64,000 nucleotides of DNA from an uncultured Gammaproteobacteria bacterium (GTDB lineage: Bacteria; Patescibacteriota; Microgenomatia; Levybacterales; UBA12049), in the NCBI GenBank assembly GCA_964512695.1, contig CAZEJU010000002.1:76233-140232 (forward strand), given 5' to 3'. The position numbers were made by a program, and so were the translations under genes. This document shows, piece after piece, positions 3,901 to 63,939 of this stretch. The notes beneath the pieces were generated by a model that saw nothing but the letters and a program-made list of their open reading frames with translations, searched no databases and had not been told where the DNA came from. Each line of letters begins with the position of its first letter. Position 1 is the stretch's first letter.

Positions 3901-4608
3901 CTTGCACGAATGATTGCGCTTGACATATCCCGAAATAATGACTGGGCATCAACGCTGCGTGGTTATGGATATTCTGATATACAAACATATGCAAATAGAT
4001 TGAACGCAATTATTCAAAAATACTCAGGAACTATTGTCGGAAAATTTGATTCTGAAGAAATTGTTGTTACATTTAAAATCCCTTCTGACATGTGGATAGC
4101 GAACACAGCAGTAGGAACTGTCATAGGCGCTCAAAGAACAGATGATCGGAGTCCCTCACAACTGCCTAATGATGAAAACTGCAATGGTTTTTATACGCTA
4201 AACAATAAAATTCATAAAAACTTCGGTGACCCTGGATGTGATTACAAAAGCGATAAAGATAAAGCAAAGCAAGAATTAATCGCGAGATTAGGAGCAGATA
4301 ATCCCGATGTTAATAAATGGGCTCTTGTCGTAATCCCTTGTGAAAGCGGCTATAATGCAAACGCATATGCTTCACATGAAAGTATAGGAACTCCTGATAA
4401 AGGTGGCGCTTGGGGTATGTTTCAAATGGGTAGCTGCATAGACGCTCCAGGATCCGGATGTGATGGAAAAAATGGTCCTTATGATAAGGGTGATGTAAAC
4501 TGGCAGCTGCAAATTCGAAACGCTGTAGAATATAATAGAATTTTAGAGAGAAATCGTCGAAAGTGGCAGTACTGGGCATGTGCTAAACGATATTGGGGAC
4601 AACCATGA
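976..4608 (+). CDS. Giant membrane-anchored protein (one TM near aa 615-640) with a C-terminal SLT-like lytic transglycosylase domain (VirB1-like)
   Basis: 1210-aa ORF. It has a hydrophobic segment 'FIVVVIIILVILLFFIIF'. The C-terminal 'CESGYNANAYAS...GAWGMFQMGS' resembles the SLT ES...GLMQ motif. It lies next to a VirB4-like ATPase. Confidence 0.5.
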   Translation: MDEKNKILTFEDYLAKYPELMGVRTLEEFDALLADLPEKIPHDLWDIIEPTIVERADISIDHPQTKKKTPERKKAPSPYANKAVTHISGTVKPKSLEENPEYIRLRNDRKREWFENRPGIDEDAFVARAYFNNLETDSNHPVDTLFPFKKVHSDFEEEIRKEFFQLHPQAEKEHKEFERTHRYNNPIEDPTYLGFMLTAKKRAREWYDRQLSEGITPSPTQLEHQFSIERAKALATFQNEHPLKADIYQEQFGSVEKAVSQARKETEGKTSSETEAPQESTTYLIIDESARKDMPLVSFSLPSTKLRKDQEYIQFREALRNEKIRVWERDHPDKKPSDRVYDAKFTSYFDRNPETGDLPFYEDAERIFRGMRPEKAAAYDALERRRVYNDPFSDPVFVQYLKQSSKAAENAVREARKANPKITRPEEERIYLVERYRYSLTFHVLFPEKAAGYAKVHSPFTSVGNYRKTVGEKTRLFSSSSTQHKATGESYDDIFKSVTGGAVPSSHAEKLPFSKPQISPSEETEEWEEEEASDNRLYNTSGSTNYNDARSERPDRRREPLSRRAREAQRSINRARQRIQNAKKLAERGRKVAQLAQRFEKAAQVARVAGTFIASPEFIVVVIIILVILLFFIIFSSMMSSTNIEQRRGYIDDRTLARVSILKQGPSIVTIPRKLVPLPDDPFNTEPDWDKVYVTYRMNVTYPGIAEDVIIAEAVPEGTEIITNDDPTTPSIEETTEPFKRLDENGEAVRNNRDTRVIEWSLKDLQDPVRVATPNPSQPVRNVTAYTNPPYNFPAPSGTSDTTYSDAELTRLNELGGRVRKYDSYLLGIVNSNSEYTDPFLSVIWAGAIAKTGGDPYYWKCGSRRVNDGCSSGAFSSGEWLTGHAMPVNKATDSLYSVFAAVYGVSGAENPDRVREIGQRVVDFSGSSPLGGIQNPITFPSKRLGLLIDEAKAGNSEAQQAVAILLMDPDIAALSLARMIALDISRNNDWASTLRGYGYSDIQTYANRLNAIIQKYSGTIVGKFDSEEIVVTFKIPSDMWIANTAVGTVIGAQRTDDRSPSQLPNDENCNGFYTLNNKIHKNFGDPGCDYKSDKDKAKQELIARLGADNPDVNKWALVVIPCESGYNANAYASHESIGTPDKGGAWGMFQMGSCIDAPGSGCDGKNGPYDKGDVNWQLQIRNAVEYNRILERNRRKWQYWACAKRYWGQP

Positions 4609-5156
4609 AAAATCTATTAGAAATATTGTCGGACAAAAGGTTAAAATATATTCTTGTTGGAATTCCATTGTTACTAGTCATCTATGTTTTTCTATTAGGG
4701 TCTAGGCCTCAAAGAAACATTACGAATCGGCCTATTACGCCTACTCCTACTTCAGGAACTTCGGCAATAGTAACTGCGCCTCTTACAAAAGACTATTATG
4801 ATCCTGATGCAATGGATAGATTTATTAACACTATAGAGACACCTGTCCCTTTATCCCGAGCAGACCAGTTAGCCAAACAAAATATCATTAATCAGTTAAA
4901 TAAACAGTCCGGAATCACACAGCGAACCTCCGAATACATAATTGAATATGTTAATAGTTCAGATGTCTTTATGGTAGAGATAACAACTATTGATGTTGCT
5001 TCGGCAAAACAGCAGGTTAAAAATTGGTTCTTAGGCAATGGCTTTAGTAGTGAATCGTTGTGTACCATGCCTGTTATCTTTTATTTGAATTTTGAAATAG
5101 CCAATATTTTTAGAAATGAAGGAAGAACCTTCAGTCCACTTGCAGAGGGATGCTAA
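4605..5156 (+). CDS. Small membrane-anchored hypothetical protein
   Basis: ATG overlaps the upstream stop (ATGA). It has an N-terminal TM 'YILVGIPLLLVIYVFLL'. Confidence 0.4.
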   Translation: MKNLLEILSDKRLKYILVGIPLLLVIYVFLLGSRPQRNITNRPITPTPTSGTSAIVTAPLTKDYYDPDAMDRFINTIETPVPLSRADQLAKQNIINQLNKQSGITQRTSEYIIEYVNSSDVFMVEITTIDVASAKQQVKNWFLGNGFSSESLCTMPVIFYLNFEIANIFRNEGRTFSPLAEGC

Positions 5157-5190
5157 TAATTTTGTCATTTGCTATACTATTTTTACATTT

Positions 5191-5919
5191 ATGAAAAGAC
5201 TTATTTCAGTCTTGTTACTACTCTCTTCTTTTCTACAATACCCTTCTCTCAGCCATGCACAAATATCTGAAAGTAATTGTGTTCTAACGCAGGTAGGAAA
5301 TCCTGCTGCTCCATCTCCAAACTGTGGAAAGAAAAGCACAACGTTAATAACTGAAGCATCAGACTATATCCGTCAAGGGTATGTAAAGTGTGGAAGACCA
5401 AGTGGAGCAACGTATCTCTACGATGGATTAGGAGGCTGCTTAAGAGGTGAACTACAGAGACTTTCTGGAAATAAATATACAGACATACAGCTTCAAGCTT
5501 TTGAAGCTGTAAGAAGAAGCGTTATTGCAAATAATTGTTCACAGTGCATAGGATATGTAAAATCTGTATTAGCGCTTGTTGATGAATCTACTTCTCCTAT
5601 TCCGGGATCGACAAACGCTAACACTGTTATCAACTCGGCTACAAATGGTAATTTTATGTCTGGGAGATATAGGTATACCCTTGTTGGACGTGGTACCGCT
5701 GCAGACATTCAGCCTGGCGATGTAGGAGCAACAAACGAAGGGGTCTGGGGGCATATTTTAATAGTTAAGCAAGTACATAATAATACTCACTTTTACGCAT
5801 ACGAATCTCATTGGCATTTAAGCTGTGGTGTTACTGATAATGTTTTGCATCCAAAAGCTAATCCTCAGACAGGTGCTGAATATTATTTCTACAGGAGACA
5901 AGATACGCCTGCTACATAA
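5191..5919 (+). CDS. Secreted CHAP-domain peptidoglycan hydrolase/amidase
   Basis: Signal peptide 'MKRLISVLLLLSSFLQYPSLSHA'. The Cys motif 'SQCIGYVKS' and His motif 'GHILIVKQV' are typical of CHAP. Confidence 0.55.
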   Translation: MKRLISVLLLLSSFLQYPSLSHAQISESNCVLTQVGNPAAPSPNCGKKSTTLITEASDYIRQGYVKCGRPSGATYLYDGLGGCLRGELQRLSGNKYTDIQLQAFEAVRRSVIANNCSQCIGYVKSVLALVDESTSPIPGSTNANTVINSATNGNFMSGRYRYTLVGRGTAADIQPGDVGATNEGVWGHILIVKQVHNNTHFYAYESHWHLSCGVTDNVLHPKANPQTGAEYYFYRRQDTPAT

Positions 5920-44934: not shown

Positions 44935-44996
44935 CTCAACGGTAGAGCAGGAAGCTGTTAACTTCAAGGTTCGTGGTTCGAATCCACGCGGGGGAG
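44925..44996 (+). tRNA. tRNA-Asn (anticodon GTT)
   Basis: Hand-folded cloverleaf. Acceptor TCCCCTG/CGGGGGA, D-arm GCTC-AACGGTA-GAGC, anticodon loop CTGTTAA, T-arm CGTGG-TTCGAAT-CCACG. The 5' end resembles E. coli tRNA-Asn. Confidence 0.75.
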
Positions 44997-46565
44997 CAAG
45001 TTCGTTCTTAATATAACTGCCTGTTGGTCAATTAACTCCTGGACAAGCGGAGAATAGACCGTATTAGCAATCTTTTTGTCGTGTACCTCCAGCTTCTCAA
45101 AGAAAAACCGGAGATAACTTTTTTTCAGAAAATCAGGTGCTTCTTTGTACGCTTTCGGAATATCACGGGTCAGTGCGAGTACTTCTTCCAATAAGTCGAA
45201 ATCAAATTTCCTGCTACTTTCAAGTTTTGCTAGTTCCTTATCTACATTCTTAATTTTTTCCTCAACCTCATCACGCAGTCGGCGATTAGCTTCTCTATTG
45301 AACAAAGCATTTGAAAACACGTCCTCCTCAAGAATTCTTCTCCTCCTTATCAGTCCCGCTCTTTCATTCAAATATCCTTTTCGGACTTTTGACTCCTCCT
45401 TATCTCTGTCATTCAGATACCTTCTCACTTTCGCAGTAAGTGCATCAGTGAAACCTTTTGTGAACTTAATACCTCTGAAATGACTGGCAACTTTGTTTTC
45501 AAGGTCGTCTGCCTCCACATAAGGAGCTTTGCAGGGCTTTCTTTTCTGACAATGATAGTAATGTACTGTATCCCTTTTTTTCGAATGAGCAGGGTGCGGT
45601 TCGGCGGTATATCTGAGACCGCAGTCAGCACAGAAAATAATGCCTCTTAACAGATAGTCATACTTTCTTTCTCTTATGGCGAATCCTCTGTGTTTGGCCA
45701 GTATCACCTGACACAAGTCAAAAAGCGGTTTGGATATCAAGGGTTCATGATTACCCATTCGTTCTCTGTTGTTTGTCTCCTGTTTCATCAGACCGTAATA
45801 GAAAGGATTAGTAAGAATCTGCTGAATAGTGCTGTGAGCTAAGGGTTTTCCGTTGACTGTCGTCAGTCCTTTGGTATACATGAACAGCCCGAGCCTTTTT
45901 ACTGAGTACTTGCCTGTAGCGAATCTTTTGAATACTTCTTTCATGAGTGGTCCGTGAATCGGGTCAACTTCAATGGGTAAGGGTTTTCTCGGAAGGGAAT
46001 CTATGTATTGCTGTCTCTCTGGCGTGCGTTTCTTACCCGCGATTCTACCTTCCTTGTCGATATTCAGATATCCGTAAGTTACACCAGTCGGATACCAGCC
46101 GTTATTCCATCTGGTATCTAAGCCTCGCTTTGTCTTTCTGCCTAAGTCCCGTGAGTAGAATTCATTAATTCCCGCCATGAAAGTGTCCAACAATCTTCCT
46201 TCCGGGCTTTCATCCAACATCGGCTGAACAACGGAAATTAGCCTTGTTCCTGCTTTTTTGAGCTGTTCCTTGATAAGAAAATGGTCTGTGGCATTTCTGG
46301 CGAAACGGTCAGTGTTGTAGACAATTATGGCTCCTACTTTCCTGGTGTCAATTTGTTCAAGCATTTTCAGAAACTCGGGTCGATTGGAGACTGTGGCACT
46401 TTGTCCTTCGTCTTTGAATGTTTCCAATATTTCATACTCTAATTCGTGAGCTTTCTTGGTACATATATCTGTTTGAGCTTCAATGGAGTACCCTTCCTTG
46501 GCTTGTTCCTCCGTACTTACTCTGCAGTAGATGAAACATGTTTTCTGGTCGTTATTCATATTCAT
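44964..46565 (-). mobile_element. Large serine recombinase (integrase) whose last about 11 codons are encoded by the tRNA-Asn 3' half
   Basis: N-terminal resolvase domain 'CFIYCRVSTEEQAKEGYSIEAQ', a recombinase domain, a Cys-rich zinc ribbon 'CADCGLRY...HYYHCQKRKPC', and a coiled-coil. Codon usage is distinct. Confidence 0.75.
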
Positions 46566-50014: not shown

Positions 50015-50111
50015 ACATGCGTTATTTTCAGCCTCAAAGCTGTCTGAATCTTAACACATTGTGACTGTGAGTCGCAAGACTCCCAGTCACATTCTTAGTA
50101 CATTTTGGAGT

Positions 50112-50366
50112 ATGGGACGAACTAATAAGTCATTTCCCGTAGACCAAAAAGACAAGGCGGTGTTACAGAAAAAGTTCGGTAAGAGACTCGCTGAAATAAG
50201 AACTGAGAAAGGGATCACTCAGGAAGGGTTGTCGTTTGAAACAGGGGTCGACAGGACGTATATTAGCTATATTGAGCGGGGTGAGCGAAATCCATCACTC
50301 TTCATGCTTTGGAGACTTTCAAAAGCTCTTAAGATCAGGATTAACGAGCTGACGGATTTTCAGTAA
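50112..50366 (+). CDS. XRE-family helix-turn-helix regulator, a possible controller protein
   Basis: 'LAEIRTEKGITQEGLSFETGVDRTYISYIERGERNPSL'. Confidence 0.65.
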   Translation: MGRTNKSFPVDQKDKAVLQKKFGKRLAEIRTEKGITQEGLSFETGVDRTYISYIERGERNPSLFMLWRLSKALKIRINELTDFQ

Positions 50367-50448
50367 CATTCTTCCTTAATTTCATCTTTGTCAGAAGTGT
50401 GTCCTTCTTACGGTATAATTGAGACCGGTAAGGAGTGGAGTTACTCGC

Positions 50449-50868
50449 ATGGATGTTCATACAAAAGAACAAAGAAGCTATAACATGTCACGGGTGAAGT
50501 CGAAAAATACTAAGCCTGAATTATTAATGTTTTTGTTACTCGAAGAGGCCGGATATAAGTTTGAAAAACATTATCCGATTACGGGTAAGCCCGATATCGC
50601 ATTTCCCGAACACAAGGTTGCCGTGTTCATTGATGGAGAATTCTGGCATGGTAAGGATTACAAGCAGATAAGAGATTCCATTCCGCCTTTTTGGGTCAAA
50701 AAAATAGGAGAAAATCTTAAACGGGACGGGAGAAATATGAGAAAGCTAAGAAGTGAAGGCTGGCGTATTCTGCACTTTTGGGATAAGAAAGTGGTCAAAT
50801 ATCCTGAGAGGTCACTCCGAAGAATTACGCGGTTTCTTGAGCGTGTAAGAATCTCTGACGGAAAGTAG
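50449..50868 (+). CDS. vsr: Very-short-patch repair endonuclease
   Basis: 'MDVHTKEQRSYNMSRVKSKNTKPE' and 'VAVFIDGEFWHG'. Confidence 0.8.
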   Translation: MDVHTKEQRSYNMSRVKSKNTKPELLMFLLLEEAGYKFEKHYPITGKPDIAFPEHKVAVFIDGEFWHGKDYKQIRDSIPPFWVKKIGENLKRDGRNMRKLRSEGWRILHFWDKKVVKYPERSLRRITRFLERVRISDGK

Positions 50869-51955
50869 GAACAAGTTTCTTTGTCGTTTTCAATTCATTC
50901 ATCGATTTAAGAAGAGCATCGGCGGCTCTTTTTGCAAGCAAAGGCGGAACTGCGTTTCCTATCTGTTCGGCAATCTGGCCAAAATTGCCTATGAATTTGA
51001 AATCATCAGGAAAAGTCTGAAGTCGTGCAGCTTCACGAAGAGATATTGCTCTGTTTTGTTCCGGGTGTCCGAATCTTCCCTTTGAAATCATCGCACAACC
51101 TCCTGTCATTGTAGGTGATGGTTGGTCCCACCTCATTCTTCCGTATACGTCTTTGTGTCCCTTTGTATTTCGGTGACATTCGAGGACTAACTCATCAGGC
51201 CATGAAGTTCTGTCTCCACCATCGTGAGGGGTCAACATGAGTCTTTTCAGATTGATTTCGGCGAGACTGGCGGAAGCATGCATGGCGTCATCCGGGTGTT
51301 TCTCGCCAGCCTGAATTTTGGGCAAGTCGTTGATGGCTTCTCTTACCGTATTCCAAGCTGGTAAATCATCAGAAGTTGCCGGGTCAATGTTGGTCTTAGA
51401 AGGAAAAGATAGCCTGATATCCGAATTATTAGTGCCCATAAGGACGAGCCTCTTTCTTCTCTGAGGAACGCCGTAATCGGCCGTATTCACAACGTCGTAG
51501 ACTGTCTGATACCCCAGCTCATGAAGTTTCTGCAGTATTTGAAGAAAGAGAGGTTTCCCGATTCCCGTCGCAAGCCCCGGAACGTTTTCAAGAACGAAAG
51601 CAAGCGGCTTAATTTCTTCAACAATTCTCAGGAATTCATATATCAGTTTGTTTCTCGGGTCTGTTAATCTTTGTGAGTTTCTCCTGGCACTCGAAAACCC
51701 CTGACAGGGAGGACAAGCGATGAGAACCACCTGTTTTCCGTTTTTGAATCCTCCCGCTTTCAACAGCTCCTTACCTGACAGATAAGAGATGTCTGACGGG
51801 AATACGGCACAGTCGGGAAAGTTTGCCTTGAATGATTCGGATGCGTTTTTGTCGATATCAACGGCAACTTTGATATCAAAACCAGCTTGCTGAAAGCCTA
51901 ACGCCGAACCTCCGCAACCGGAAAAAAGGTCAATTACACCCAAGTTTCCCTTCAT
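50825..51955 (-). CDS. dcm: DNA (cytosine-5)-methyltransferase
   Basis: Motif I 'DLFSGCGGSALGF', motif IV 'PPCQGFS', motif VI 'ENV'. It is convergent with vsr and overlaps it by 44 nt. Confidence 0.85.
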   Translation of the reverse strand: MKGNLGVIDLFSGCGGSALGFQQAGFDIKVAVDIDKNASESFKANFPDCAVFPSDISYLSGKELLKAGGFKNGKQVVLIACPPCQGFSSARRNSQRLTDPRNKLIYEFLRIVEEIKPLAFVLENVPGLATGIGKPLFLQILQKLHELGYQTVYDVVNTADYGVPQRRKRLVLMGTNNSDIRLSFPSKTNIDPATSDDLPAWNTVREAINDLPKIQAGEKHPDDAMHASASLAEINLKRLMLTPHDGGDRTSWPDELVLECHRNTKGHKDVYGRMRWDQPSPTMTGGCAMISKGRFGHPEQNRAISLREAARLQTFPDDFKFIGNFGQIAEQIGNAVPPLLAKRAADALLKSMNELKTTKKLVPTFRQRFLHAQETA

Positions 51956-52112
51956 GATAATAATATATCATTTTTCGCCCGGTCGCTGTCGGGGTTTTTT
52001 GAAGAGTGTATATACTCATTCATTCCGTGTTATATATTTTATAAGTGTTGACTACAGAATGAAAATATAGTATCCTTTGTTCCAGCAAATCGGTCTAAAT
52101 ACTGAAATTAAT

Positions 52113-52340
52113 ATGAAAACAGGCGAAACAAAAGGTGCGGCTTTCAAAAGGCTCGCTTCCAACAGAACGAATAACGCAATCAGGAACATCAAACTTCTGG
52201 GTAATTTGTCCAACAAACATAATTACTCCTACTCCGAAGAGGACTTCAAACGAATTTTCAACAGCGTCGAACATGAACTTAAACTGGCAAAATCGAAATT
52301 TCTTATCTCGCTGAGTAAGAGTAAGAAATTCAAACTCTGA
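52113..52340 (+). CDS. Small basic hypothetical protein, first gene of the candidate operon
   Basis: ATG at 52113. The track's 52077 start is a TTG. Confidence 0.35.
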   Translation: MKTGETKGAAFKRLASNRTNNAIRNIKLLGNLSNKHNYSYSEEDFKRIFNSVEHELKLAKSKFLISLSKSKKFKL

Positions 52341-52363
52341 AAAGTGGATAATTAATTATTAAA

Positions 52364-53014
52364 ATGAAAATGAAAAAAGATATAACATCACTGAAGCTCA
52401 CAAGACCACAGAAGATTCTCGTAACACTGTATCAACTTTCCGACGGTACTAATAAACAGGTCAGGTTCGAAGATATAGCAGTAGGCGTTTATAAGAACTT
52501 CACTTCCGATTTTCAGCTAAGAGGTTATCCTCAATACCCTGATACGGGTGATATTGTACATAAACCGCTGTATAGCGAATTGAAAAAAGGCGGATATGTA
52601 TTATCCGGCAATAAGTACTTTTCCCTTACTCCGAAAGGAATTGCGTACGCCAAAAGACTGCTCCGCGTTTCAGAGAAAGAAACCGAACCGGGTAAAACCG
52701 CTTCAGTGAAACTTACGGCAGACCAGCAGAAAGAGCTTGACAGATTGAAATCTTCAAAGGCTGTTGAGTTGTTTCTTAACGGCAAGAAAGAGGATATTCT
52801 TGATATAGACTTCTATTCCTATCTGGAAGTTACAGTGAGGACGGGTAAGAATGACTTTCTGGGAAGACTTCGCACGGTAGAAGACGCCATTAATGCTACA
52901 AAAAACAGAAGTGACACGCTGTACAAAAAGCTGAGAGAATGTCACGAGTATCTTCTTGAAAGATTCAGAGGAAACATTGATTTCGTAAGGAACAGCAAAG
53001 GAGGTAAGAGGTAA
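52364..53014 (+). CDS. Putative winged-helix DNA-binding protein, 216 aa
   Basis: 'RPQKILVTLYQLSDGTNKQVRFEDIAV...GGYVLSGNKYFSLTPKGIAYAKRL' is PadR/MarR-like. Its stop overlaps the next start. Confidence 0.4.
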   Translation: MKMKKDITSLKLTRPQKILVTLYQLSDGTNKQVRFEDIAVGVYKNFTSDFQLRGYPQYPDTGDIVHKPLYSELKKGGYVLSGNKYFSLTPKGIAYAKRLLRVSEKETEPGKTASVKLTADQQKELDRLKSSKAVELFLNGKKEDILDIDFYSYLEVTVRTGKNDFLGRLRTVEDAINATKNRSDTLYKKLRECHEYLLERFRGNIDFVRNSKGGKR

Positions 53015-54858
53015 TGGCAACGACAATACAAATGAAAATTAAGGAAGAGCAGAATGTCTATCATGACAACATTCTTGATATTTGGGGTAATGACTTCAAT
53101 TTCAGTCATGAAAAGGGTTTGGCAGAATGGCTTAAGAATTCAGTAGACGCATACCGCAGAGTCGGGGCTGCCGACAAAGACCAATACATTATCTTCCGTT
53201 TCACTGACGGTACTCAGACGACACCTCCAGTTATTGAGTGCATTGATTTCGTGGGAATGGAATTGGTTGATATTGAGAAGGCTTTCAAATGGTGGGGTGA
53301 CCCTGATGCGGCAAAAAGAGGTCAAAAAATTAAGGTATTCGGCGGTCATGGAAACGGCGGAAAGTTCTATATGCGTCAGATGTTTCTGCAATCACATTTT
53401 GTGACATACAGGCAGGGAAAAATTAACGTCTTCGGATTCAATGAAAACAGGAAGTATGGTTTTGCAGAAGGATATAAGGACAAAAAAGTTACACTTGATG
53501 AAGCCCTGAAGATAGCCGGGATAGAAAGGTCAACTATTCCCAATGCGGTTTTGCGTCAACTTGAACACGGAGAGACTGGGTTTACTGTTGTCAAAGGAAT
53601 CAGACCGAAAAAAGTCGTCGGTAGGAGTCTTCCCGTATTCAGAATATGTGACAAGCTGAAGTATCATCCTCAGGCAAGAAGTCCTCTTAAGTTCAGTAAT
53701 GTATCCGTTATCCATAACGGCAAGATAATTGCGAACGGCCTGAGAATGGAAGATATCGAACCGCTTGAAGGTTTTGAAGGACCGTTCTTTTTTGAGATTC
53801 CCGACGAAATAGATTCCATAGCGGACGGAGAAACAGGAAAGAAAGTGAATATGTATGACAAGAGGTATGGGAAAGGCAGTCTGGTATTAAAAACTTCATC
53901 TCTTCCTTTCGGTCGCGGAGGTAGAAAACCTGAGCTGAATTGTATTGATATTGTCGGTGAAATCGGTGTTATTGCTTCATATAACATGCAACAGATAGGC
54001 TTTCTCCGATACTTCCCTCAGGCTCAATATATATATGGAGAGTGCTCATGTCCCATTCTTGAAGACCCGGAATATGATTGTGTTCAGAATGACAGAGAAA
54101 GACTTGTCGATAATGAAAAAACAGCAGCTCTCCTTCAATGGATTGCAAGAAGAATAGATGAAGTGGCAGGCAAGATTGCCGATAATGAAGCGAAGGCGGA
54201 AGAAGCTGAGAATATAAGAGCTACAGACGAGTTTAATCAGATTCTCAATAAGTGGAAGAATCAGTTTATGTCGAAGCTGTTTGCTGAGGTCTTGGGCGGT
54301 ACGGGAAAAGGAGATTCTACCGGTGGTCAGGGTGACGAAGGCTCAGGTGGCGGCACGAAGAAAGAATCAAAAGACAAGGACGGATTAGGCTCAGGAGCCG
54401 GTAAGGGTGGCGGAGAAGGAGATGAGAAGAAGAAAGGTTCAAGAGCACCCCTTGTACTTTTGTCCGGACAGGAAGACCCGGAATTTCCCGGTATGCCTGT
54501 AACTTTTTCTGACAGACATTTCGCTGTGGAACAAAGACAGCAGGATGTAGACAGAGGAATATATTGGATTAATCTTGAAAAGCCGATGGCGAAGAAGATA
54601 ATCGATAAGTACGGAGTTGACTCTCCGAGGTGGAGAAACTATTTATTCCAGAGATATGTTGACATATTTACAAAGGAAACATTGTATCGTCTGGCAAAGA
54701 AGGAAGGAGGCTCTCTTACGCCCGAACAGGCTGACTACGAAATAATGCGTGTGTCATCTCTTGTATATGATAAGGCCACAATCGACCTTGAAGATTTTCT
54801 TCTGAGCGAGAGATACAATTCAGGCAAGAATAATGAAAATGAATCCGAACAATCATGA
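53014..54858 (+). CDS. GHKL/MORC-like ATPase with a Gly/Lys/Asp-rich linker
   Basis: Bergerat N-box 'AEWLKNSVDA' (ExxxNxxDA) and G2-like 'FGGHGNGGKFY'. Low-complexity stretch 'GGTGKGDSTGGQGDEGSGGGTKKESKDKDGLGSGAGKGGGEGD'. Confidence 0.55.
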   Translation: MATTIQMKIKEEQNVYHDNILDIWGNDFNFSHEKGLAEWLKNSVDAYRRVGAADKDQYIIFRFTDGTQTTPPVIECIDFVGMELVDIEKAFKWWGDPDAAKRGQKIKVFGGHGNGGKFYMRQMFLQSHFVTYRQGKINVFGFNENRKYGFAEGYKDKKVTLDEALKIAGIERSTIPNAVLRQLEHGETGFTVVKGIRPKKVVGRSLPVFRICDKLKYHPQARSPLKFSNVSVIHNGKIIANGLRMEDIEPLEGFEGPFFFEIPDEIDSIADGETGKKVNMYDKRYGKGSLVLKTSSLPFGRGGRKPELNCIDIVGEIGVIASYNMQQIGFLRYFPQAQYIYGECSCPILEDPEYDCVQNDRERLVDNEKTAALLQWIARRIDEVAGKIADNEAKAEEAENIRATDEFNQILNKWKNQFMSKLFAEVLGGTGKGDSTGGQGDEGSGGGTKKESKDKDGLGSGAGKGGGEGDEKKKGSRAPLVLLSGQEDPEFPGMPVTFSDRHFAVEQRQQDVDRGIYWINLEKPMAKKIIDKYGVDSPRWRNYLFQRYVDIFTKETLYRLAKKEGGSLTPEQADYEIMRVSSLVYDKATIDLEDFLLSERYNSGKNNENESEQS

Positions 54859-56266
54859 CAATTCCATCCTGCCCGCACAGTTATCACTGCATAACACAAC
54901 TTCGAATACCGGAGCTGTTAATTATTTGTCAGAGAATGAAATATCCCTCCCTCCTTCTCTGAGTAATGACGACTCCATTGAAGTATTGGGTCTACCAATA
55001 AGACTGGAAAACGCTCTCAAAAATTCAGGAAATATCACGACAGTCGGACAGTTAGTTAATACCGCTGACGAAAAGTTGCTGAAGTTGAGGAATCTCGGTC
55101 ATAAGTCCGTCAACTATCTTATGCAGGTGAAATTGAAGATAGATGAAAAGTTCAGTACTCTCCAAAACAGAACACCCACAGAAATAACTGAGCAAAAACA
55201 AGAGGAAAAAATTATTCCTGTCAATCAACTCCTCAATTTGTTGCTCGATAGATGCGGTAGTGAAAGAGTCAAAGAAATAGTCAAAAGACGATACGGCCTT
55301 ATGGACGGAGAAAGACAAACTCTCGAAGAAATCGGTGAGCATTACGGAGTAACTAGAGAAAGAATCAGACAGATTCAAGTTAAGGCATTGAAGAGCATGC
55401 GACATCCGATTACTACAGCCAGGAAACCGATTACGGATATTATGGAAACCATTCTGTTTCGGAATGGCGGAATAATTTCTGCTGAAGAAGCGGACACCAT
55501 AATTCCGGAAGCTTTCAGTGATACGGGTAACGACGGGAGTTCTGTGCTTGATTTACTTTGTGAATTGGGCTGGATTCAGAGCTGCAGAATCGGAGATATA
55601 GCAATATATTCACCGAAATTTGACGGTGTTTCTCTGTGCAAGTTGTCGGAAAAAATCACATTTCTGATTAAGAAACAGGATTTAGGGATTGACATTCCTT
55701 CAATATTCAAAGGTGTCAGTATGTTCAGAAGAATCAGAGACCAACGTTTCAATCCTCAGGACTTCGTTCTCAGATATTGCAGAATCGACCCTCGGATTGA
55801 AGAAATCGGACTTACATCAGCACAACCCGAAGTTTTTTTCAGGTACTATACAGTCGGTCATTTCGCTAAGAAGGGTTGGGTGGTTCTTATGACCAGAGTG
55901 TTGGAACAGGAACAAATGCCGTTACATTTCACTGAAATTGCAGATAAGGTAAATGACCTTCTGGGTAATTCTGAGAGGAGACTGGATGTAAGAAGAGCAC
56001 ATTCGATATTGATTGACGATGAAGCATTCGCTCACAGTGGTATTAACGGGACGTACGGTCTTACATCGTGGGGTTTGAGAAAAGATTCAACTGTCGAACT
56101 GGCAGAAGAGTGTCTGAGAAAAGCGGGGTTCCCGTTACATTGGAAGCAAATATTCAATTATGTGAGCAGGTATAAGAATACAAAACCGGGAAACATTACC
56201 AGTATTCTTGAAAATCATCGCAGATTCAAAAGAGTTGAATCAGGAATTTATTGGCTTAATGACTAG
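54833..56266 (+). CDS. Multi-HTH protein made of RNA-polymerase-subunit-like modules: alpha-CTD-like, sigma70 region-4-like, and two HARE-HTH-like domains
   Basis: 'IRLENALKNSGNITTVGQLVNTADEKLLKLRNLGHKSVNYL' resembles the RpoA CTD. '[41 protein letters not shown]' resembles sigma r4.2. 'PLHFTEIADKV...GTYGLTSW' and 'PLHWKQIFNYV...GIYWL' resemble HARE-HTH. It overlaps the upstream gene by 26 nt. Confidence 0.6.
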   Translation: MKMNPNNHDNSILPAQLSLHNTTSNTGAVNYLSENEISLPPSLSNDDSIEVLGLPIRLENALKNSGNITTVGQLVNTADEKLLKLRNLGHKSVNYLMQVKLKIDEKFSTLQNRTPTEITEQKQEEKIIPVNQLLNLLLDRCGSERVKEIVKRRYGLMDGERQTLEEIGEHYGVTRERIRQIQVKALKSMRHPITTARKPITDIMETILFRNGGIISAEEADTIIPEAFSDTGNDGSSVLDLLCELGWIQSCRIGDIAIYSPKFDGVSLCKLSEKITFLIKKQDLGIDIPSIFKGVSMFRRIRDQRFNPQDFVLRYCRIDPRIEEIGLTSAQPEVFFRYYTVGHFAKKGWVVLMTRVLEQEQMPLHFTEIADKVNDLLGNSERRLDVRRAHSILIDDEAFAHSGINGTYGLTSWGLRKDSTVELAEECLRKAGFPLHWKQIFNYVSRYKNTKPGNITSILENHRRFKRVESGIYWLND

Positions 56267-56274
56267 TGATATAT

Positions 56275-58680
56275 ATGGACATACAGAAAATTAAAATTAA
56301 GAGCGATTATAAATTAGCGGATATCGTTCATGATATTGAAAAAGGAATCTTGAGGATTCCTCAATTCCAGAGAGAGTTTGTGTGGGATAAGCCCCGGGTC
56401 ATCAAACTTCTGGAAAGTATCTATCTTGAATACCCGATTGGGTCTTTTTTCTTCTGGGACGCTCCGCGAAAGTATTACGACTTCTATCGTGATATCGCTG
56501 AGTTGGGTCTTCCCAAGCCCGATAGGTACGAAAAAATTGTTTTCATTCTCGACGGTCAACAGAGGCTTACTTCCCTCTATGTTACGGTCAAAGGGTTGAC
56601 GCTCTACAGTAGGGATTACAAAAAGATTTGTTTTGACCTGGATGAAAAAATATTTGTTGACAGAATACCTGACAATCAGAGATTCGTTTCTGTTTCAGAT
56701 TTACTATCGAATGACCGATTTGATGTCTATGAACGACTTACGGTTGAGCGAAAGAAATCATTCAACGAATGCTATCAGCGATTCAATAATTATCCTTTCT
56801 CAGCGATTGATGTCCGGGACAAGGAACTTGATGAGGTCTGTGACATCTTTGAGCGTATCAACCAGGGAGGACAGAGACTCAATTTGTTTGACCTCATTTC
56901 AGCAAGCACTTGGACTCCCGAGTTTGACTTAAGGTTTGCGGTCAAGAAAGAGAATGACAATCTGAAGACAAAGGGCTTCGGAGATATTGATAATGAAGTC
57001 TTTCTTCAAACACTTTCCCTTATCGCCAAGGGTTCATGTACGAGACCTGTCCAATTACAATTAAGGGCCGAAGACGTTAATAAGTTCTGGCAGGAGACAG
57101 TCAATTCAATGTCTCTGGCAATTGATTATCTGAAGAACAACTTAGGGGTGGTCAATTCGGTGTTCATTCCGTACAGAAGTATGATAGCTGTTGTTGCTTA
57201 CCTGTTCTCTGTCAACAAAGGCAGGAGTCTGAATCACGAGCAGTCAGAGCTATTGTCCCAATGGTTCTGGCAGACTACGTTTTCAGAGCGGTACGGAGCT
57301 TCAATTCTGACGTTAATGACCGAAGACAAAAAATTAATGGACAAAATAGCTTCAGGAACTGATATCAGCGTTAAGTATCCGTTTTCGTTGGATATTGATT
57401 CACTTATTCAGGTGAGAATGTATCGAAAGTCGGCTGTTAAAAACGGCATTCTGTGCCTGTTGGCTAAGAGAAACCCCAGACATTTCAAAAACAATGTCCC
57501 TCTTCTGCTCAAAGACGGATATTATTCAGATTTCAACAATTCAGAGAAACATCATATTTTTCCTAAGGCGATTGTTCAGAAGAAGTTCCCTATGGTCATG
57601 GTACATTCACTCCCAAACTTCTGTTTCATTCCTGCGGAACTTAATAAGGAGATATCAGACAAACAGCCGAGCAAGTATTTTGAAGAGTATTTGAGTATAA
57701 ACCCCGACTTTGAAGATACTCTCAGAACCCACCTGATTAAGTACGATGATTCAATCAGACAGAACGATTTCATGTCTTTTCTGGCTTCAAGAGCGGCGAT
57801 GATTCTTGAGGAAATAACGAGAGCTACCGGTTCAAAAATCAGTCGGGTAGTAGCAGATAACGTTAACAAGGCGATAGATGATACTGAGAAGAAACTGCGT
57901 GACTTCATAGATAAGCAATTATCCTTAAATAATACTGATTATTGGAAAACATCAGTACCGAGCGATGTTGTCGGAATAATGCGTCAGAGAGTCAATCAAT
58001 ATCTGTCCAAAGACCCTTCAAAGATAATCAGCGATTTCAGTTCAAGGGACTTACTCGACTTCTGTGACATTATGGATTATTCAAAAATGGTCATCTCAAA
58101 CTGGAACATATTTTCAACTTTTTTCAGGTCGAAGATTGAAACTGAGAAAAGATTTTTGAATCTGAAAGAGTTCAGAAACGCAGTCAAACATACAAGAGGA
58201 GAGATTGTTCCTTTCATTCAGAAAGAAGGAGAAGCGGCTCTGGAATGGCTATCAATCATTCTTGGTGAAGTCAGAAAAAAGGGAGAGGAAAGAGCTTCAG
58301 TTACAGAGACCGACGAACAAACCATTAACAGGGTTGAATCGGAGTTTGTCAAACATATGGTCAAAGGAATACCTCAATGGATTGAAAACGATTACCCTGA
58401 AGGAACCAGTTCAATAGTGAAGTTGGTGGGCGGTACGGGTTCTGACCATTACATAAAAACAAACAGCAGAACAGCTATCTGGTATTATTTCGCTAAACAA
58501 TGGGTGTTCATGGAGTTGAAGGATGCGACTGTTGAAGAAGCTAAATTGTTGAGGGAAAGGATTTCAAAGCCCGAGTCAATATTAGAAAAGCAAAACGGTG
58601 CCGTCAGATTTCATCTGATGAATGATAATGATTTGAAGGTGGTAACGGACATTATAAGAATCAGAGCTAATAACGGTTGA
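56275..58680 (+). CDS. GmrSD-family-like nuclease: DUF262 (ParB-like) plus DUF1524 (His-Me finger) plus a C-terminal extension with a HEPN-like RNxxxH motif
   Basis: 'IPQFQREFVWD' and 'LDGQQRLTSLYV' are DUF262 motifs. 'SEKHHIFPKAIV' is DUF1524. 'EFRNAVKHTRGE' is an Rx4H motif. ATG at 56275; the track start 56266 is a GTG. Confidence 0.65.
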   Translation: MDIQKIKIKSDYKLADIVHDIEKGILRIPQFQREFVWDKPRVIKLLESIYLEYPIGSFFFWDAPRKYYDFYRDIAELGLPKPDRYEKIVFILDGQQRLTSLYVTVKGLTLYSRDYKKICFDLDEKIFVDRIPDNQRFVSVSDLLSNDRFDVYERLTVERKKSFNECYQRFNNYPFSAIDVRDKELDEVCDIFERINQGGQRLNLFDLISASTWTPEFDLRFAVKKENDNLKTKGFGDIDNEVFLQTLSLIAKGSCTRPVQLQLRAEDVNKFWQETVNSMSLAIDYLKNNLGVVNSVFIPYRSMIAVVAYLFSVNKGRSLNHEQSELLSQWFWQTTFSERYGASILTLMTEDKKLMDKIASGTDISVKYPFSLDIDSLIQVRMYRKSAVKNGILCLLAKRNPRHFKNNVPLLLKDGYYSDFNNSEKHHIFPKAIVQKKFPMVMVHSLPNFCFIPAELNKEISDKQPSKYFEEYLSINPDFEDTLRTHLIKYDDSIRQNDFMSFLASRAAMILEEITRATGSKISRVVADNVNKAIDDTEKKLRDFIDKQLSLNNTDYWKTSVPSDVVGIMRQRVNQYLSKDPSKIISDFSSRDLLDFCDIMDYSKMVISNWNIFSTFFRSKIETEKRFLNLKEFRNAVKHTRGEIVPFIQKEGEAALEWLSIILGEVRKKGEERASVTETDEQTINRVESEFVKHMVKGIPQWIENDYPEGTSSIVKLVGGTGSDHYIKTNSRTAIWYYFAKQWVFMELKDATVEEAKLLRERISKPESILEKQNGAVRFHLMNDNDLKVVTDIIRIRANNG

Positions 58681-61200: not shown

Positions 61201-61701
61201 ATGAGTAGATTAATTACATGTATATGGTTTGCAAATAATAACGGAGAAGAAGCAGTAAAATACTACATAGATACTTTCAATGCAGCTCCTGGAGAACATT
61301 CCGCAATACTCGGGGATATCACAAAAGCACCAAAGGCATCACAAGAAGTTTCAGGTATGCCTGCTGGCTCCGTCATGACAGCTGAATGCGAGCTTGATGG
61401 AACAAGCTTTATGTTTCTTAATGGTGGTGCGATGGAACAATTCAAACTTAATGGGTCTACCTCTTTTATAATTGAGTGCGAAACACAAGAAGAAATTGAT
61501 TTCTTCTGGGAAAAACTCTCAGCAGTTCCTGAAGCTGAACAGTGCGGATGGTGTACAGACAAATTCGGTATAACATGGCAAGTAGTCCCACGTATTTTAG
61601 ATGAAATGATGAGAGATCCTGAAAAAGCAGAGGCGGTAACTGCTGCTTTTATGCCCATGAAGAAACTTGACCTCGAAACAATCCGAAAAGCTGGCGAATA
61701 G
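61201..61701 (+). CDS. PhnB-like / 3-demethylubiquinone-9 3-methyltransferase-domain (VOC superfamily) protein
   Basis: 'ITCIWFANNNGEEAVKYY' and 'GWCTDKFGITWQVVP'. Confidence 0.55.
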   Translation: MSRLITCIWFANNNGEEAVKYYIDTFNAAPGEHSAILGDITKAPKASQEVSGMPAGSVMTAECELDGTSFMFLNGGAMEQFKLNGSTSFIIECETQEEIDFFWEKLSAVPEAEQCGWCTDKFGITWQVVPRILDEMMRDPEKAEAVTAAFMPMKKLDLETIRKAGE

Positions 61702-61750
61702 AATCTGATTCCCTAACTGAAACGATATTTTATACTCACCTTGTACATAT

Positions 61751-62347
61751 ATGAGAAAAATAATTGTTCTCGAATTCATTACTCTGGATGGCGTTATGCA
61801 AGCTCCTGGTGGGCCAGAAGAAGATACTTCAGGAGGTTTTACTTTTGGTGGATGGACTGTCCCTTATTTTGATGATTATACTGGACATGTCATGGCTGAT
61901 CAAATGAAAGAACCTTACAGTCTCCTACTGGGTAGAAAAACATTCGAAATTTTTTCTTCGTATTGGCCACAGCATGCAGATGGCTGGCCAGGAGTGAACG
62001 AATCCACAAAATATGTCGTTTCGAGTACTCTTTCATCATCTGATTGGCACAATTCAGTTTTTCTAAAAGGAGATGCAGTTGAAGAAATTAAGAAGTTAAA
62101 AGCAGGGGAAGGTCCTGATTTAAAAGTGTGGGGTAGTGGGGATTTGGTACAGACACTTCTTAAAAATGATTTGGTGGATGAGCTGAAGCTGAAGATTTTC
62201 CCTATAACGCTCGGCAAAGGAAAACGTTTATTCGGAGACGGAACAATTCCGAGCGCATTTACATTAACAGAATCGGAAACTTCTCCCAGTGGAGTAATAA
62301 TCGTAAACTACAAACGATCCGGAGAAGTTAAAACTGGCTCGTTTTAG
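61751..62347 (+). CDS. RibD C-terminal / dihydrofolate-reductase-like protein
   Basis: '[21 protein letters not shown]', '[11 protein letters not shown]' and '[13 protein letters not shown]'. Confidence 0.6.
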
Positions 62348-62634: not shown

Positions 62635-63939
62635 TTGACTCATATGGGTGAAAGTTCTTCCACCATACAAGCAAATAAAGTACGTTTTGACAGTTTAGGT
62701 TATGGATATCAAGACACTCTCCCTCACCAACGTAGGAAAGAGACTATTCTGGACTTAGTGCGGGAAGCTATTAGACCAAGAGATATTTGGCTAAACCCGA
62801 AAGATCACACACTACGCGTTAGTGAAATTGGTATAGGCAACGGTTTTTTATCAGAAGGGTATAGAAGTATATTTGAAGGTCTCCCCTTCCCGACGAGTAT
62901 CACGGGAGTTGATTTAAACTCTACAATGTTGGCAGATCTACAAAAGAAAGGAATAATTGATATGGGTGTTTTAGCTCTAGCGGAGAAACTTCCCATGGCT
63001 GCTGAATCCCAAGATTTAGTAGTTATGTCAGAAGTATTAGAACATACCCGTACACCTCGATTTCCATTAGAAGAACTATACCGAGTTCTGAAACCTAGGG
63101 GGAAGTTTGTGGGAAGTGTTCCAAATATGGCTCAACTGTGGGATAGAATTGCTATGCTGAGCGGTGATGCCCCTCATCAAGTAGCACGAAAAATTGGAGA
63201 TCCAACTTTTACCCATGAGAGTCATTTTACGGTTAACTTACTGAAAGAAGCATTAAGAAAAGCTGGATTTACAGAAATAGAGATTAAGACCAATCTGGTT
63301 CGTCTATTACGTAAAGATGATGGAACTGCTTTTCCCTTTTTGAGTGAAATTATTAAAAATACTGCACCTGGACTAGGGGACAGGTTAATATGGACCGCAA
63401 GCAAACAAGGATCACCATTATTATCTGAGGGTGGTATTCCTACTTTGTATCTGGTATCTGGATCACCTAGAACTGGTAAATCAACTTTATCTCATACATT
63501 GTCTCAAAAAAAAGATATAGATATCGTGAGTATTACTGATATAAGATCTCAGCAGACGAGTGGTGATCCTAAGTTTGTTCCTCAAGAATTGGAAGAAGCA
63601 TATGTATCTTCGGTTGATATAATAAGAGATCTTTTGCAAAGTGGACAGAGTGCTATTTGGGAAGGCACATTCAGAAGTAGAGAAAGCCGAGAAAAAATAA
63701 AATCTCTAATAAGAAGATGTCCTAGTGGCTATAGAATCATTCCCATTGAGTTGAGAGCGTCAAGTGATATTATAGCTAGACGTGTGGAAGCAACTCAAAA
63801 AGAACATTTAGATAGGGATGTGACACCGCAGAGAGCTGTGCAACTTAGCGAATCCCATCCACAGCTTCCCGGTGCTTTTGTCTATGATACATCAGCAATG
63901 TCGGTTGAAGACATTGTAGGATCAGTGCTGAAGATATAG
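62635..63939 (+). CDS. Fusion protein: class I SAM-dependent methyltransferase plus P-loop kinase/NTPase
   Basis: MTase 'VVMSEVLEHTRTP...LKPRGKFVG'. Walker A 'LVSGSPRTGKSTL'. Confidence 0.55.
   Translation: MTHMGESSSTIQANKVRFDSLGYGYQDTLPHQRRKETILDLVREAIRPRDIWLNPKDHTLRVSEIGIGNGFLSEGYRSIFEGLPFPTSITGVDLNSTMLADLQKKGIIDMGVLALAEKLPMAAESQDLVVMSEVLEHTRTPRFPLEELYRVLKPRGKFVGSVPNMAQLWDRIAMLSGDAPHQVARKIGDPTFTHESHFTVNLLKEALRKAGFTEIEIKTNLVRLLRKDDGTAFPFLSEIIKNTAPGLGDRLIWTASKQGSPLLSEGGIPTLYLVSGSPRTGKSTLSHTLSQKKDIDIVSITDIRSQQTSGDPKFVPQELEEAYVSSVDIIRDLLQSGQSAIWEGTFRSRESREKIKSLIRRCPSGYRIIPIELRASSDIIARRVEATQKEHLDRDVTPQRAVQLSESHPQLPGAFVYDTSAMSVEDIVGSVLKI

Follow-up and report, generated by a model that had tools for sequence, protein, structure and literature searches.

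The window (the whole 64,000-nt stretch of DNA analysed) contains a gene whose product was read in the initial annotation as a GmrSD-like DUF262–DUF1524 nuclease with a C-terminal HEPN-like motif and, possibly, as a dual DNase/RNase effector. This raises the question of whether the gene encodes a plain DNA-cutting type IV enzyme or one that also carries an RNase, and whether it acts on its own.

The gene lies within a single plus-strand open reading frame (ORF), given as 56266(GTG)..58680 in the ORF listing of the window. A start at GTG 56266 would add three codons compared with ATG 56275; as homologues begin with M[DE]IQKIKIK, we consider the ATG the likely true start. The ORF is full length, coverage being 100% for the majority of the 28 top homologues. 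Both the ORF and its four motifs were found where the initial annotation had placed them. In ATG numbering, these are FQREFVW at aa 31 (nt 56365–56385), DGQQR at aa 93 (nt 56551–56565), EKHHIFPKA at aa 424 (nt 57544–57570) and KEFRNAVKHTRGE at aa 631 (nt 58165–58203). NCBIfam contained no model matching the protein. From the N-terminus, the domains are a DUF262 ParB-like NTPase, a middle domain, a DUF1524-type His-Me nuclease, a Swt1-like HEPN and a variable alpha/beta domain (Table 1), and all the predicted catalytic residues are conserved.

Table 1. Features of the gene, with the evidence on which each assignment was based.
Feature	Coordinates (nt)	Strand	Basis or remark
Complete gene	56275..58680	+	801 aa + stop codon; intact
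DUF262 / GmrSD_N ParB-like NTPase domain (aa 14–210)	56314..56904	+	PF03235, BrxU 7P9K, invariant motifs
Middle domain or linker, DUF262 to nuclease (aa ~211–400)	56905..57474	+	Approximate boundaries; BrxU alignment up to aa 322
Likely DUF1524-type His-Me (HNH) nuclease region (aa ~401–505)	57475..57789	+	HEC-05 profile, invariant residues
Swt1-like HEPN domain (aa ~530–665)	57862..58269	+	PF18731, PDC-M34B, AF2 model
RNAVKH (R634, N635, H639), Rx4-6H motif, predicted RNase active site	58174..58191	+	Conservation, model position
C-terminal alpha/beta domain (aa ~680–801)	58312..58677	+	AF2 model, Foldseek, tail swapping

The N-terminal part of the protein matched Pfam PF03235 (GmrSD_N) over aa 14–210 with an E-value of 1.3e-31 (110.7 bits; gathering score, 33.2). 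Its closest solved relative was BrxU (7P9K; E 5.6e-21 across aa 14–322), in an alignment that pairs QREFVW and DGQQR with the window protein. The residues of DGQQR and FQR.F.W were invariant in the corresponding alignment (A3), and together these observations back the DUF262 assignment. The middle domain is presumed to be helical as in BrxU/GmrSD, a family whose linker is alpha-helical and 200–400 aa long (Machnicka 2015).

The nuclease region was assessed via its motif residues, E424-K-H426-H427-I-F-P430 followed by N448 and N457. E424, H426, H427, P430, N448 and N457 were invariant in the alignment, and HHIFP is the counterpart of the DHIYP/EHICP motifs targeted by mutation in BrxU and HEC-06. 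Positions 508–592 (of 600) of the PADLOC HEC-05 (BrxU type) model matched aa 427–515 (E 2.1e-6), and BrxU itself aligned weakly to aa 441–514. No match to Pfam DUF1524 (PF07510) was obtained in this region, even at an E-value of 10. The C-terminal HEC-05 match and the invariant residues speak for the His-Me/DUF1524 assignment, but the Pfam family was not recovered; the region is likely a divergent DUF1524.

The HEPN assignment was approached via family profiles. Against Pfam HEPN_Swt1 (PF18731), the window protein scored 20.5 bits as a whole and 24.7 bits as an isolated domain, compared with a gathering score of 27.5. The consensus sequences of the window's family (28.8 bits) and of all representatives (32.1 bits) exceeded this cut-off, and their secondary matches all fell within other HEPN families, namely SAV2148 and Abi_2. 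HEPN_Swt1 was matched in 22 of 25 diverse homologues (best E 1.8e-6) and was the only consistent Pfam match; no rival family was consistently matched by the HEPN region among these 25. Three PADLOC PDC-M34B models matched the region as well (best E 3.6e-11); a search of the literature for PDC-M34 found nothing. Searching with a profile of the HEPN-region domain yielded 1422 clusters at 50% identity (E ≤ 1e-3). In the 108 representatives scanned, HEPN_Swt1 was detected in 44 (E ≤ 1e-3, best 6.4e-9), HEPN_SAV2148 in three and Abi_2 in one.

R and H of the motif were kept in all 120 best homologues, with identity down to 42%, and N in 119 of them. In the 164-column domain alignment (A1), R130 and H135 were among just 15 invariant columns. 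The conservation of these two residues is not due to chance. Among the 149 representatives of domain clusters, drawn from many architectures, 134 carried RNxxxH, and the only invariant or near-invariant columns across 108 proteins were E and R in helix 1, W, F, R-N-x3-H and W.

The AlphaFold (AF2) model of the domain was all-alpha, with a pLDDT of 85. It placed RNAVKH at the C-terminus of the third core helix (sub-residues 116–135), with a loop afterwards, and both this placement and the predicted topology are compatible with the published description of HEPN domains. Foldseek searches of the model against PDB and BFVD gave no significant match (best E ~1, highest probability 0.47); among the top four PDB matches, two were the HEPN RNases Csm6′ and Csx1-Crn2 (non-significant). 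Comparing the HEPN alignment profile with PDB sequences gave noise only. We also looked in PDB sequences and with Foldseek for a confident match to a non-HEPN fold, and found none. Taken together, the matches in homologues, the consensus scores, the retention of R and H and the topology of the model support, for aa ~530–665, the HEPN reading proposed in the initial annotation.

The last domain of the protein was modelled with a pLDDT of 89 and had no sequence-family match in Pfam or PADLOC. Its PDB matches in Foldseek were 2oc6, 9t2w, 2fki and 5jlt (probability 0.9–1.0, TM 0.5–0.6, E 0.01–0.1), which suggests a YdhG(DUF1801)/YjbR/T4 MotA-CTD-like fold; for this structural similarity the probability was 0.99–1.00 with an rmsd of ~4 Å, but E was only 0.012–0.03, the resemblance being at the level of fold only. 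In close homologues (62–77% identical proteins), unrelated domains stand in its place, with DUF5655 and DUF4268 among the tail types. As hhalign found no similarity between the tail of the window protein and tails of six other types (best probability <1%), we do not claim homology among the swapped tails. The swappable last domain, similar in fold to DNA-binding domains (T4 MotA-CTD and YjbR among them), would most likely be a specificity or sensor module.

Next, we considered the genomic context and distribution of the gene. In four of the five contexts examined, a type I R-M operon adjoined the gene or the gene ended the operon, and OLD/Gabija-like, Shedu or SMC-like genes were also present in the type I R-M contexts. 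Serine recombinases were found near the gene in several loci. The gene is transferred horizontally as one unit and is located within defence islands. The family is large, with 4812 matches for the whole protein at 90% clustering, and is found chiefly in uncultured Patescibacteria and archaea, whose defence biology is barely explored. The gene is a mobile stand-alone defence module, usually located beside type I R-M and mostly found in Patescibacteria.

These data could be read in other ways. RNxxxH might be a chance match, with aa 520–801 forming a family-specific helical extension unrelated to HEPN: RNAVKH (aa 634–639) is the sole Rx4-6H string in the protein, a single occurrence is within chance given an estimated expectation of ~2 per 800-aa protein, the Pfam score of the protein taken singly is below threshold, and Foldseek was silent. 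Such a reading is barely tenable in view of the HEPN_Swt1 matches among homologues and representatives, the PDC-M34B match, the consensus scores above the cut-off, the recurrence of RNxxxH among representatives and the lack of a consistently matched competing family in the region. The domain could instead be a real HEPN that is not an RNase but has a part in dimerisation, nucleic-acid binding or regulation, which would leave the protein a plain type IV enzyme that cuts DNA. The eukaryotic Swt1 HEPN domains, founders of the family, have been inferred to be inactive binders (PMC3710099), BrxU-type enzymes need dimerisation, and the active-site geometry found no confirming structural match in Foldseek. 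However, the invariance of R and H, together with the recurrence of RNxxxH in unrelated architectures that include stand-alone proteins of ~150–220 aa, is a pattern typical of catalytic residues and not of an interface, and ParB+HNH fusions were classed as 'active' by Anantharaman et al. (PMC3710099). We therefore regard a non-RNase role as unlikely.

A further alternative concerns the genes upstream. The co-directional neighbours encode proteins of 87, 216 and 614 aa and a 477-aa sigma-r4/alpha-CTD/HARE-HTH protein; these genes share a strand and adjoin or overlap one another, and the 477-aa gene has its stop codon 8 nt ahead of the ATG. The gene might accordingly act as effector subunit in a system of four or five genes and not as a stand-alone enzyme, and the arrangement is repeated in the loci of the closest homologue, L003 and L004. 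These two loci, however, look like one and the same element (neighbours 73–95% identical) and are the only ones in which the upstream trio accompanies the gene: any of the three genes was present in 0 of the 18 other loci with family members. Elsewhere the gene comes after type I R-M operons or alone, and the characterised relatives act as single proteins. On the basis of co-occurrence, we rejected the upstream genes and the window gene as one system, and regard a subunit role as quite improbable. The 614-aa neighbour gave a by-eye impression of a GHKL ATPase, which was unsupported by Pfam, PADLOC, NCBIfam and PDB sequence searches.

The explanation we favour, with a probability of roughly 0.6, is a stand-alone anti-phage effector made of one polypeptide: a member of the GmrSD/BrxU (type IV restriction-like) family that has gained two further domains at its C-terminus and is predicted to be a dual DNase/RNase. 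This dual activity is one that we infer by analogy. Going by GmrSD, BrxU and SspE, all of them characterised relatives, the DUF262 domain would bind and hydrolyse NTP and sense DNA, probably modified phage DNA, and this sensing would license the His-Me nuclease for DNA cutting. The HEPN domain, as in the HEPN superfamily, would be a metal-independent endoRNase with an active site arising from two paired HEPN domains. As BrxU-type proteins are dimers that change state on binding nucleotide, in the simplest model one and the same rearrangement, driven by NTP and DNA, would also switch on RNA cleavage; the coupling of the NTPase state to HEPN pairing is one that we purely infer. RNA cleavage may then provide a second, growth-arresting or suicidal arm should DNA cleavage alone fail.

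Should the HEPN domain prove to be an active RNase controlled by the DUF262 NTPase, this family would combine direct phage DNA restriction with abortive-infection-type RNA shut-off in one polypeptide, providing a compact model of the coupling between first-line and last-resort immunity. More tentatively, and with considerable doubt on our part, the protein may be a two-armed self-contained effector in which one NTP-driven DUF262 sensor runs both the His-Me DNase and the HEPN RNase, while the fast-exchanged MotA-CTD/YjbR-like fifth domain sets recognition (e.g., of DNA hypermodification or a phage protein). Tail swapping among 62–77% identical proteins would in that case represent a modular specificity cassette of a type IV enzyme, a feature undescribed for GmrSD/BrxU. 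A natural experiment on specificity is provided by the exchangeable C-terminal domain.

We compared the protein with four known or predicted systems. BrxU (7P9K)/PADLOC HEC-05, a GmrSD-like type IV restriction enzyme, shares with it the DUF262 domain with DGQQR, the middle domain and, in all likelihood, the His-Me nuclease, which is C-terminal in BrxU. BrxU-type genes often lie within or beside type I R-M, BREX and Hma systems, and the gene described here likewise usually lies beside type I R-M. Defence by BrxU and HEC-06 was lost upon mutation of DGQQR or His-Me residues. BrxU, however, has 587 aa and ends after DUF1524, whereas the window protein continues for another ~300 aa (HEPN and alpha/beta tail); the nuclease motifs also differ (HHIFP in the window protein, which Pfam DUF1524 misses, and DHIYP in BrxU).

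Two other systems combine HEPN domains with defence proteins. PD-T4-2, whose mechanism is given as N/A, is a two-gene DUF262 + HEPN phage-defence system (Vassallo et al. 2022) and resembles the window protein in pairing a DUF262 protein with a HEPN protein. It differs in having two genes, no His-Me nuclease and a HEPN of PF18735, compared with one gene and a PF18731-like HEPN; its PD-T4-2_A model matched the window protein weakly and over aa 15–58 only (E 2.1e-5). In the HEPN-DUF499 ATPases (HmaC / Ava_2192 type) of Hma/'BR' systems, a Swt1/Abi2-clade HEPN is likewise joined to a defence NTPase; this HEPN has been put forward as a suicide RNase of last resort, alongside an arm that targets DNA. 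These have other partner domains in another order and belong to a multi-gene system. Three representatives from the domain-profile search, with the domain N-terminal in proteins of 863–965 aa, are candidate HEPN-DUF499-like proteins.

The same three core domains, in the same order and with the same HEPN family, occur in the ParB(DUF262)+HNH+Swt1-like HEPN fusions that were catalogued computationally and listed as 'active' (Anantharaman, Makarova, Burroughs, Koonin, Aravind 2013; PMC3710099 Table 1), with VNG7073 of Halobacterium as an example. The fusion is thus not new: it was predicted in 2013, and the window gene adds one more member. In the literature searched, we found no experiment on any member of this family. 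The only relatives of the window HEPN region in the plasmid collection were Halobacterium pNRC100/pNRC200 genes. The VNG7073 candidate, WP_010890508.1 from pNRC100, aligned to aa 207–665 with 34% identity (E 1e-91), KHHIFP and FRNALAH included. As annotated now, the Halobacterium gene differs from the window gene in lacking the DUF262 core (aa 1–197), stopping right after the HEPN domain and having no fifth domain. With the fusion already on record as a prediction and similar 'backup RNase' proposals made for HEPN-DUF499, the value of the window gene lies in the choice of a testable candidate and not in a new concept.

The gene can be read as a single long ORF from a GTG codon, which shares nucleotides with the stop codon of the preceding gene. 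The product from the ATG at 56275 starts with MDIQKIKIK. Because homologues begin in the same way, we took this ATG as the start, which gives a protein of 801 aa and bears out the gene coordinates of the initial annotation. A motif search found all four motifs quoted there in the protein (Table), and RNAVKH at aa 634–639 is its sole Rx4-6H string. We assign to the protein, with a probability of about 0.9, an architecture of DUF262, His-Me nuclease, HEPN, and C-terminal domains.

Table. Coordinates of the target gene, its motifs and neighbours, and a related haloarchaeal gene (nt of the window unless stated otherwise)
Feature	Position	Strand	Remarks
Single long ORF	56266–58680	+	GTG start; ORF listing of the window
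Target gene	56275–58680	+	ATG start; 801 aa
FQREFVW	aa 31		target protein
DGQQR	aa 93		target protein
EKHHIFPKA	aa 424		target protein
KEFRNAVKHTRGE	aa 631		target protein
Tail domain	58312–58677		exchanged in homologues P0029, P0037, P0064, P0067, P0070, P0072
Upstream block of four genes	52077–56266	+	87, 216, 614, 477 aa; ORF listing, family scans
HTH_3/Vsr/C5-methylase trio	50061–51955		adjoins the block
Large serine recombinase	44964–46565	-	Resolvase + Recombinase + Zn ribbon; upstream of the block
Methyltransferase-kinase fusion	62635–63939	+	434 aa
WP_010890508.1 gene	4005–5402 of locus L023		pNRC100, NC_001869.1 73259–74656

The N-terminal part belongs to DUF262, as had been proposed. 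Residues 14–210 matched Pfam GmrSD_N/DUF262 (E 1.3e-31), and a profile built from the first 520 aa of ten homologues and searched against PDB sequences found BrxU (PDB 7P9K; E 5.6e-21, aa 14–322) with QREFVW and DGQQR aligned, followed by weaker matches to more DUF262 and SspE chains. For the following His-Me region, named DUF1524 in the initial annotation, Pfam DUF1524 gave no match even at E 10, but aa 427–515 matched the C-terminal positions 508–592 (of 600) of the BrxU-type PADLOC model HEC-05 (E 2.1e-6), and E424, H426, H427, P430, N448, and N457 were invariant in an alignment of homologues down to 43% identity. The HHIFP motif is the counterpart of DHIYP in BrxU and EHICP in HEC-06, mutation of which abolishes defence (Payne et al.). 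On its sequence, we take this region for an intact nuclease of the DUF1524 type, although a divergent one.

Apart from these two domains, a family signal recurred only at aa ~530–665. Pfam HEPN_Swt1 (PF18731) scored 20.5 bits on the whole protein and 24.7 bits on the isolated region, both below the gathering score of 27.5. The same family matched 22 of 25 diverse homologues (best E 1.8e-6), and no other family recurred in the Pfam scan of their HEPN region. The threshold was passed by two consensus sequences, that of the family (28.8 bits) and that of the wider domain family (32.1 bits), with secondary matches to other HEPN families only (HEPN_SAV2148, Abi_2). Three PADLOC PDC-M34B models matched the region (best E 3.6e-11), and a PADLOC RT-associated HEPN model gave a weak match touching the motif region. 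The motif R and H were kept in 120/120 best homologues and the N in 119/120. The HEPN domain suspected from the motif is supported by the homologue and consensus matches and by this conservation.

The HEPN reading is more than a motif, given the R/H conservation, the spread of the domain profile, and the shared features of its matches. When the profile of the HEPN region was searched against 1.84 billion cluster representatives, 1422 clusters were found at E <= 1e-3 and 365 at E <= 1e-10, in many architectures: stand-alone (~150–220 aa), at the C-terminus of DUF262 and other proteins, and at the N-terminus of proteins of 863–965 aa. Among the matches listed, 134 of 149 representatives had RNxxxH, and most others had R[HRK]xxxH. 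In an alignment of 108 representatives, full or nearly full conservation was confined to the columns of the helix-1 E and R, W, F, R-N-x3-H, and a final W; Pfam detected HEPN_Swt1 in 44, GmrSD_N in 35, HEPN_SAV2148 in three, and Abi_2 in one. The motif R and H were among the 15 invariant columns of 164 in the domain alignment. Structure prediction, proposed in the initial annotation as a check, agreed: the AlphaFold model of aa 505–668 was all-helical (pLDDT 85, core > 93); its first helix, a long one, and the second are followed by a helical insert, a helix ending in RNAVKH, a loop, and a last helix. This fits the HEPN layout of Anantharaman et al. (PMC3710099), where helix 3 ends in the motif, which continues into the loop before helix 4, and inserts occur between helices 2 and 3.

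The tail (aa ~680–801) had no sequence-family match in Pfam or PADLOC. It was modelled as an alpha/beta domain (pLDDT 89), and its best PDB neighbours in Foldseek were YdhG/DUF1801 (2oc6, 9t2w), YjbR (2fki), and the DNA-binding C-terminal domain of T4 MotA (5jlt, 1kaf), with probability 0.9–1.0 and TM 0.5–0.6 but E only about 0.01–0.1. Proteins 62–77% identical to the target over the first ~665 aa varied in this last domain: some carried DUF5655 (PF18899) or DUF4268 (PF14088), some a domain of one of at least four more types, and some had no such domain. Seven tail sequence types were present among the 120 best matches, and hhalign profile–profile comparison detected no similarity between them. 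This exchangeable fifth domain is a modestly interesting feature; DUF4268 and DUF4357 are already recorded as extra domains of GmrSD homologues (Machnicka et al. 2015).

In GmrSD/BrxU/SspE-type proteins, DUF262 is an NTP-binding and NTP-hydrolysing sensor and DUF1524 a DNA nuclease; the DGQQR and His-Me residues are essential, and BrxU requires dimerisation (Payne et al.). Based on these relatives and the conserved residues, the target would perform NTP-controlled DNA cleavage, probably of modified phage DNA. By analogy with its superfamily, the HEPN domain would be a metal-independent endoRNase with a site formed by pairing of two HEPN domains; our own hypothesis is that the conformational change acting on the DNA arm would also switch it on. 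The tail would most likely be a nucleic-acid-binding or specificity module. On these analogies, the balance tips slightly towards a dual DNase/RNase function.

The target gene closes a co-directional block of genes lying downstream of HTH_3, Vsr, and C5 cytosine methylase genes. The four block genes before it may form an undescribed R-M-like or defence module. The 477-aa block protein, similar to parts of MzaA and PglW, combines RNAP alpha-CTD, sigma70 region 4, and HARE-HTH domains. Searches of Pfam, PADLOC, NCBIfam, and PDB sequences matched neither the 216- nor the 614-aa protein to a family; by eye only, the N-terminus of the 614-aa protein looks GHKL-like (EWLKNSVDA, DFVGM, GGHGNGGKF). 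Housekeeping genes (purB, purA, dnaG, rpoD) also lie upstream, separated from the block by a serine recombinase, and G+C is about 0.40–0.46 in the block and falls to 0.34–0.36 right after the target gene, which suggests an integrated element of ~14 kb (44964 to ~58700). Further downstream, and unrelated to the present finding, the window encodes a protein in which a class I SAM methyltransferase (Methyltransf_11) is joined to a C-terminal AAA_33/zeta-toxin-like kinase domain.

The neighbours of the target gene recur beside its closest homologue (88% identity); the upstream ones are absent from all of the other 18 loci examined. At other loci, the family gene follows or adjoins type I R-M operons with OLD-like, SMC-like, PD-(D/E)XK, or Shedu genes, and serine recombinases recur near family members (loci L006/L012, L008, L010, L011, L016, L019). 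Genome matches were mainly to Patescibacteria MAGs, and also to MAGs of Bathyarchaeia, Thermococci, Gammaproteobacteria, and Terriglobales. The behaviour is that of an autonomous, horizontally mobile defence gene, and the context fits the "embedded GmrSD-like genes" of Payne et al. Locus L007 (MAG contig GCA_964445435.1, 13815–14981) has downstream genes in common with the window (61201–62347), encoding a PF06983 protein (80% identity) and a RibD_C protein (72%). In the same place lies a family member with an identity of only 42%, preceded by a type I R-M system in which a Shedu gene is embedded. The site resembles a chromosomal hot spot for defence genes, with differing cargo in related genomes.

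The architecture itself has a precedent: for Swt1-like HEPN domains, Table 1 of Anantharaman et al. 2013 (PMC3710099) records fusions to "ParB (DUF262) with HNH (VNG7073), active". In the plasmid collection, relatives of the HEPN region were found only in Halobacterium pNRC100/pNRC200. The protein WP_010890508.1 (465 aa), probably VNG7073, aligned with target aa 207–665 (34% identity, E 1e-91) across KHHIFP and FRNALAH, and it ends just after the HEPN domain. Its locus represents only target aa 198–665, and the DUF262 core was not found there. Just upstream lies a 204-nt ORF, and a second ORF 3.7 kb away encodes an identical product; the Halobacterium relative may have been truncated through a small repeated element. 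Experimental work on a DUF262-HNH-HEPN fusion was not found in the searchable literature. For HEPN-DUF499 ATPases, a role as backup suicide RNases has been put forward, and PD-T4-2 pairs DUF262 and HEPN as two genes, whereas the target holds both in one protein. The initial observation is confirmed and its interpretation supported; the target does not amount to a new kind of system and adds a new, intact member to an architecture known from computation.
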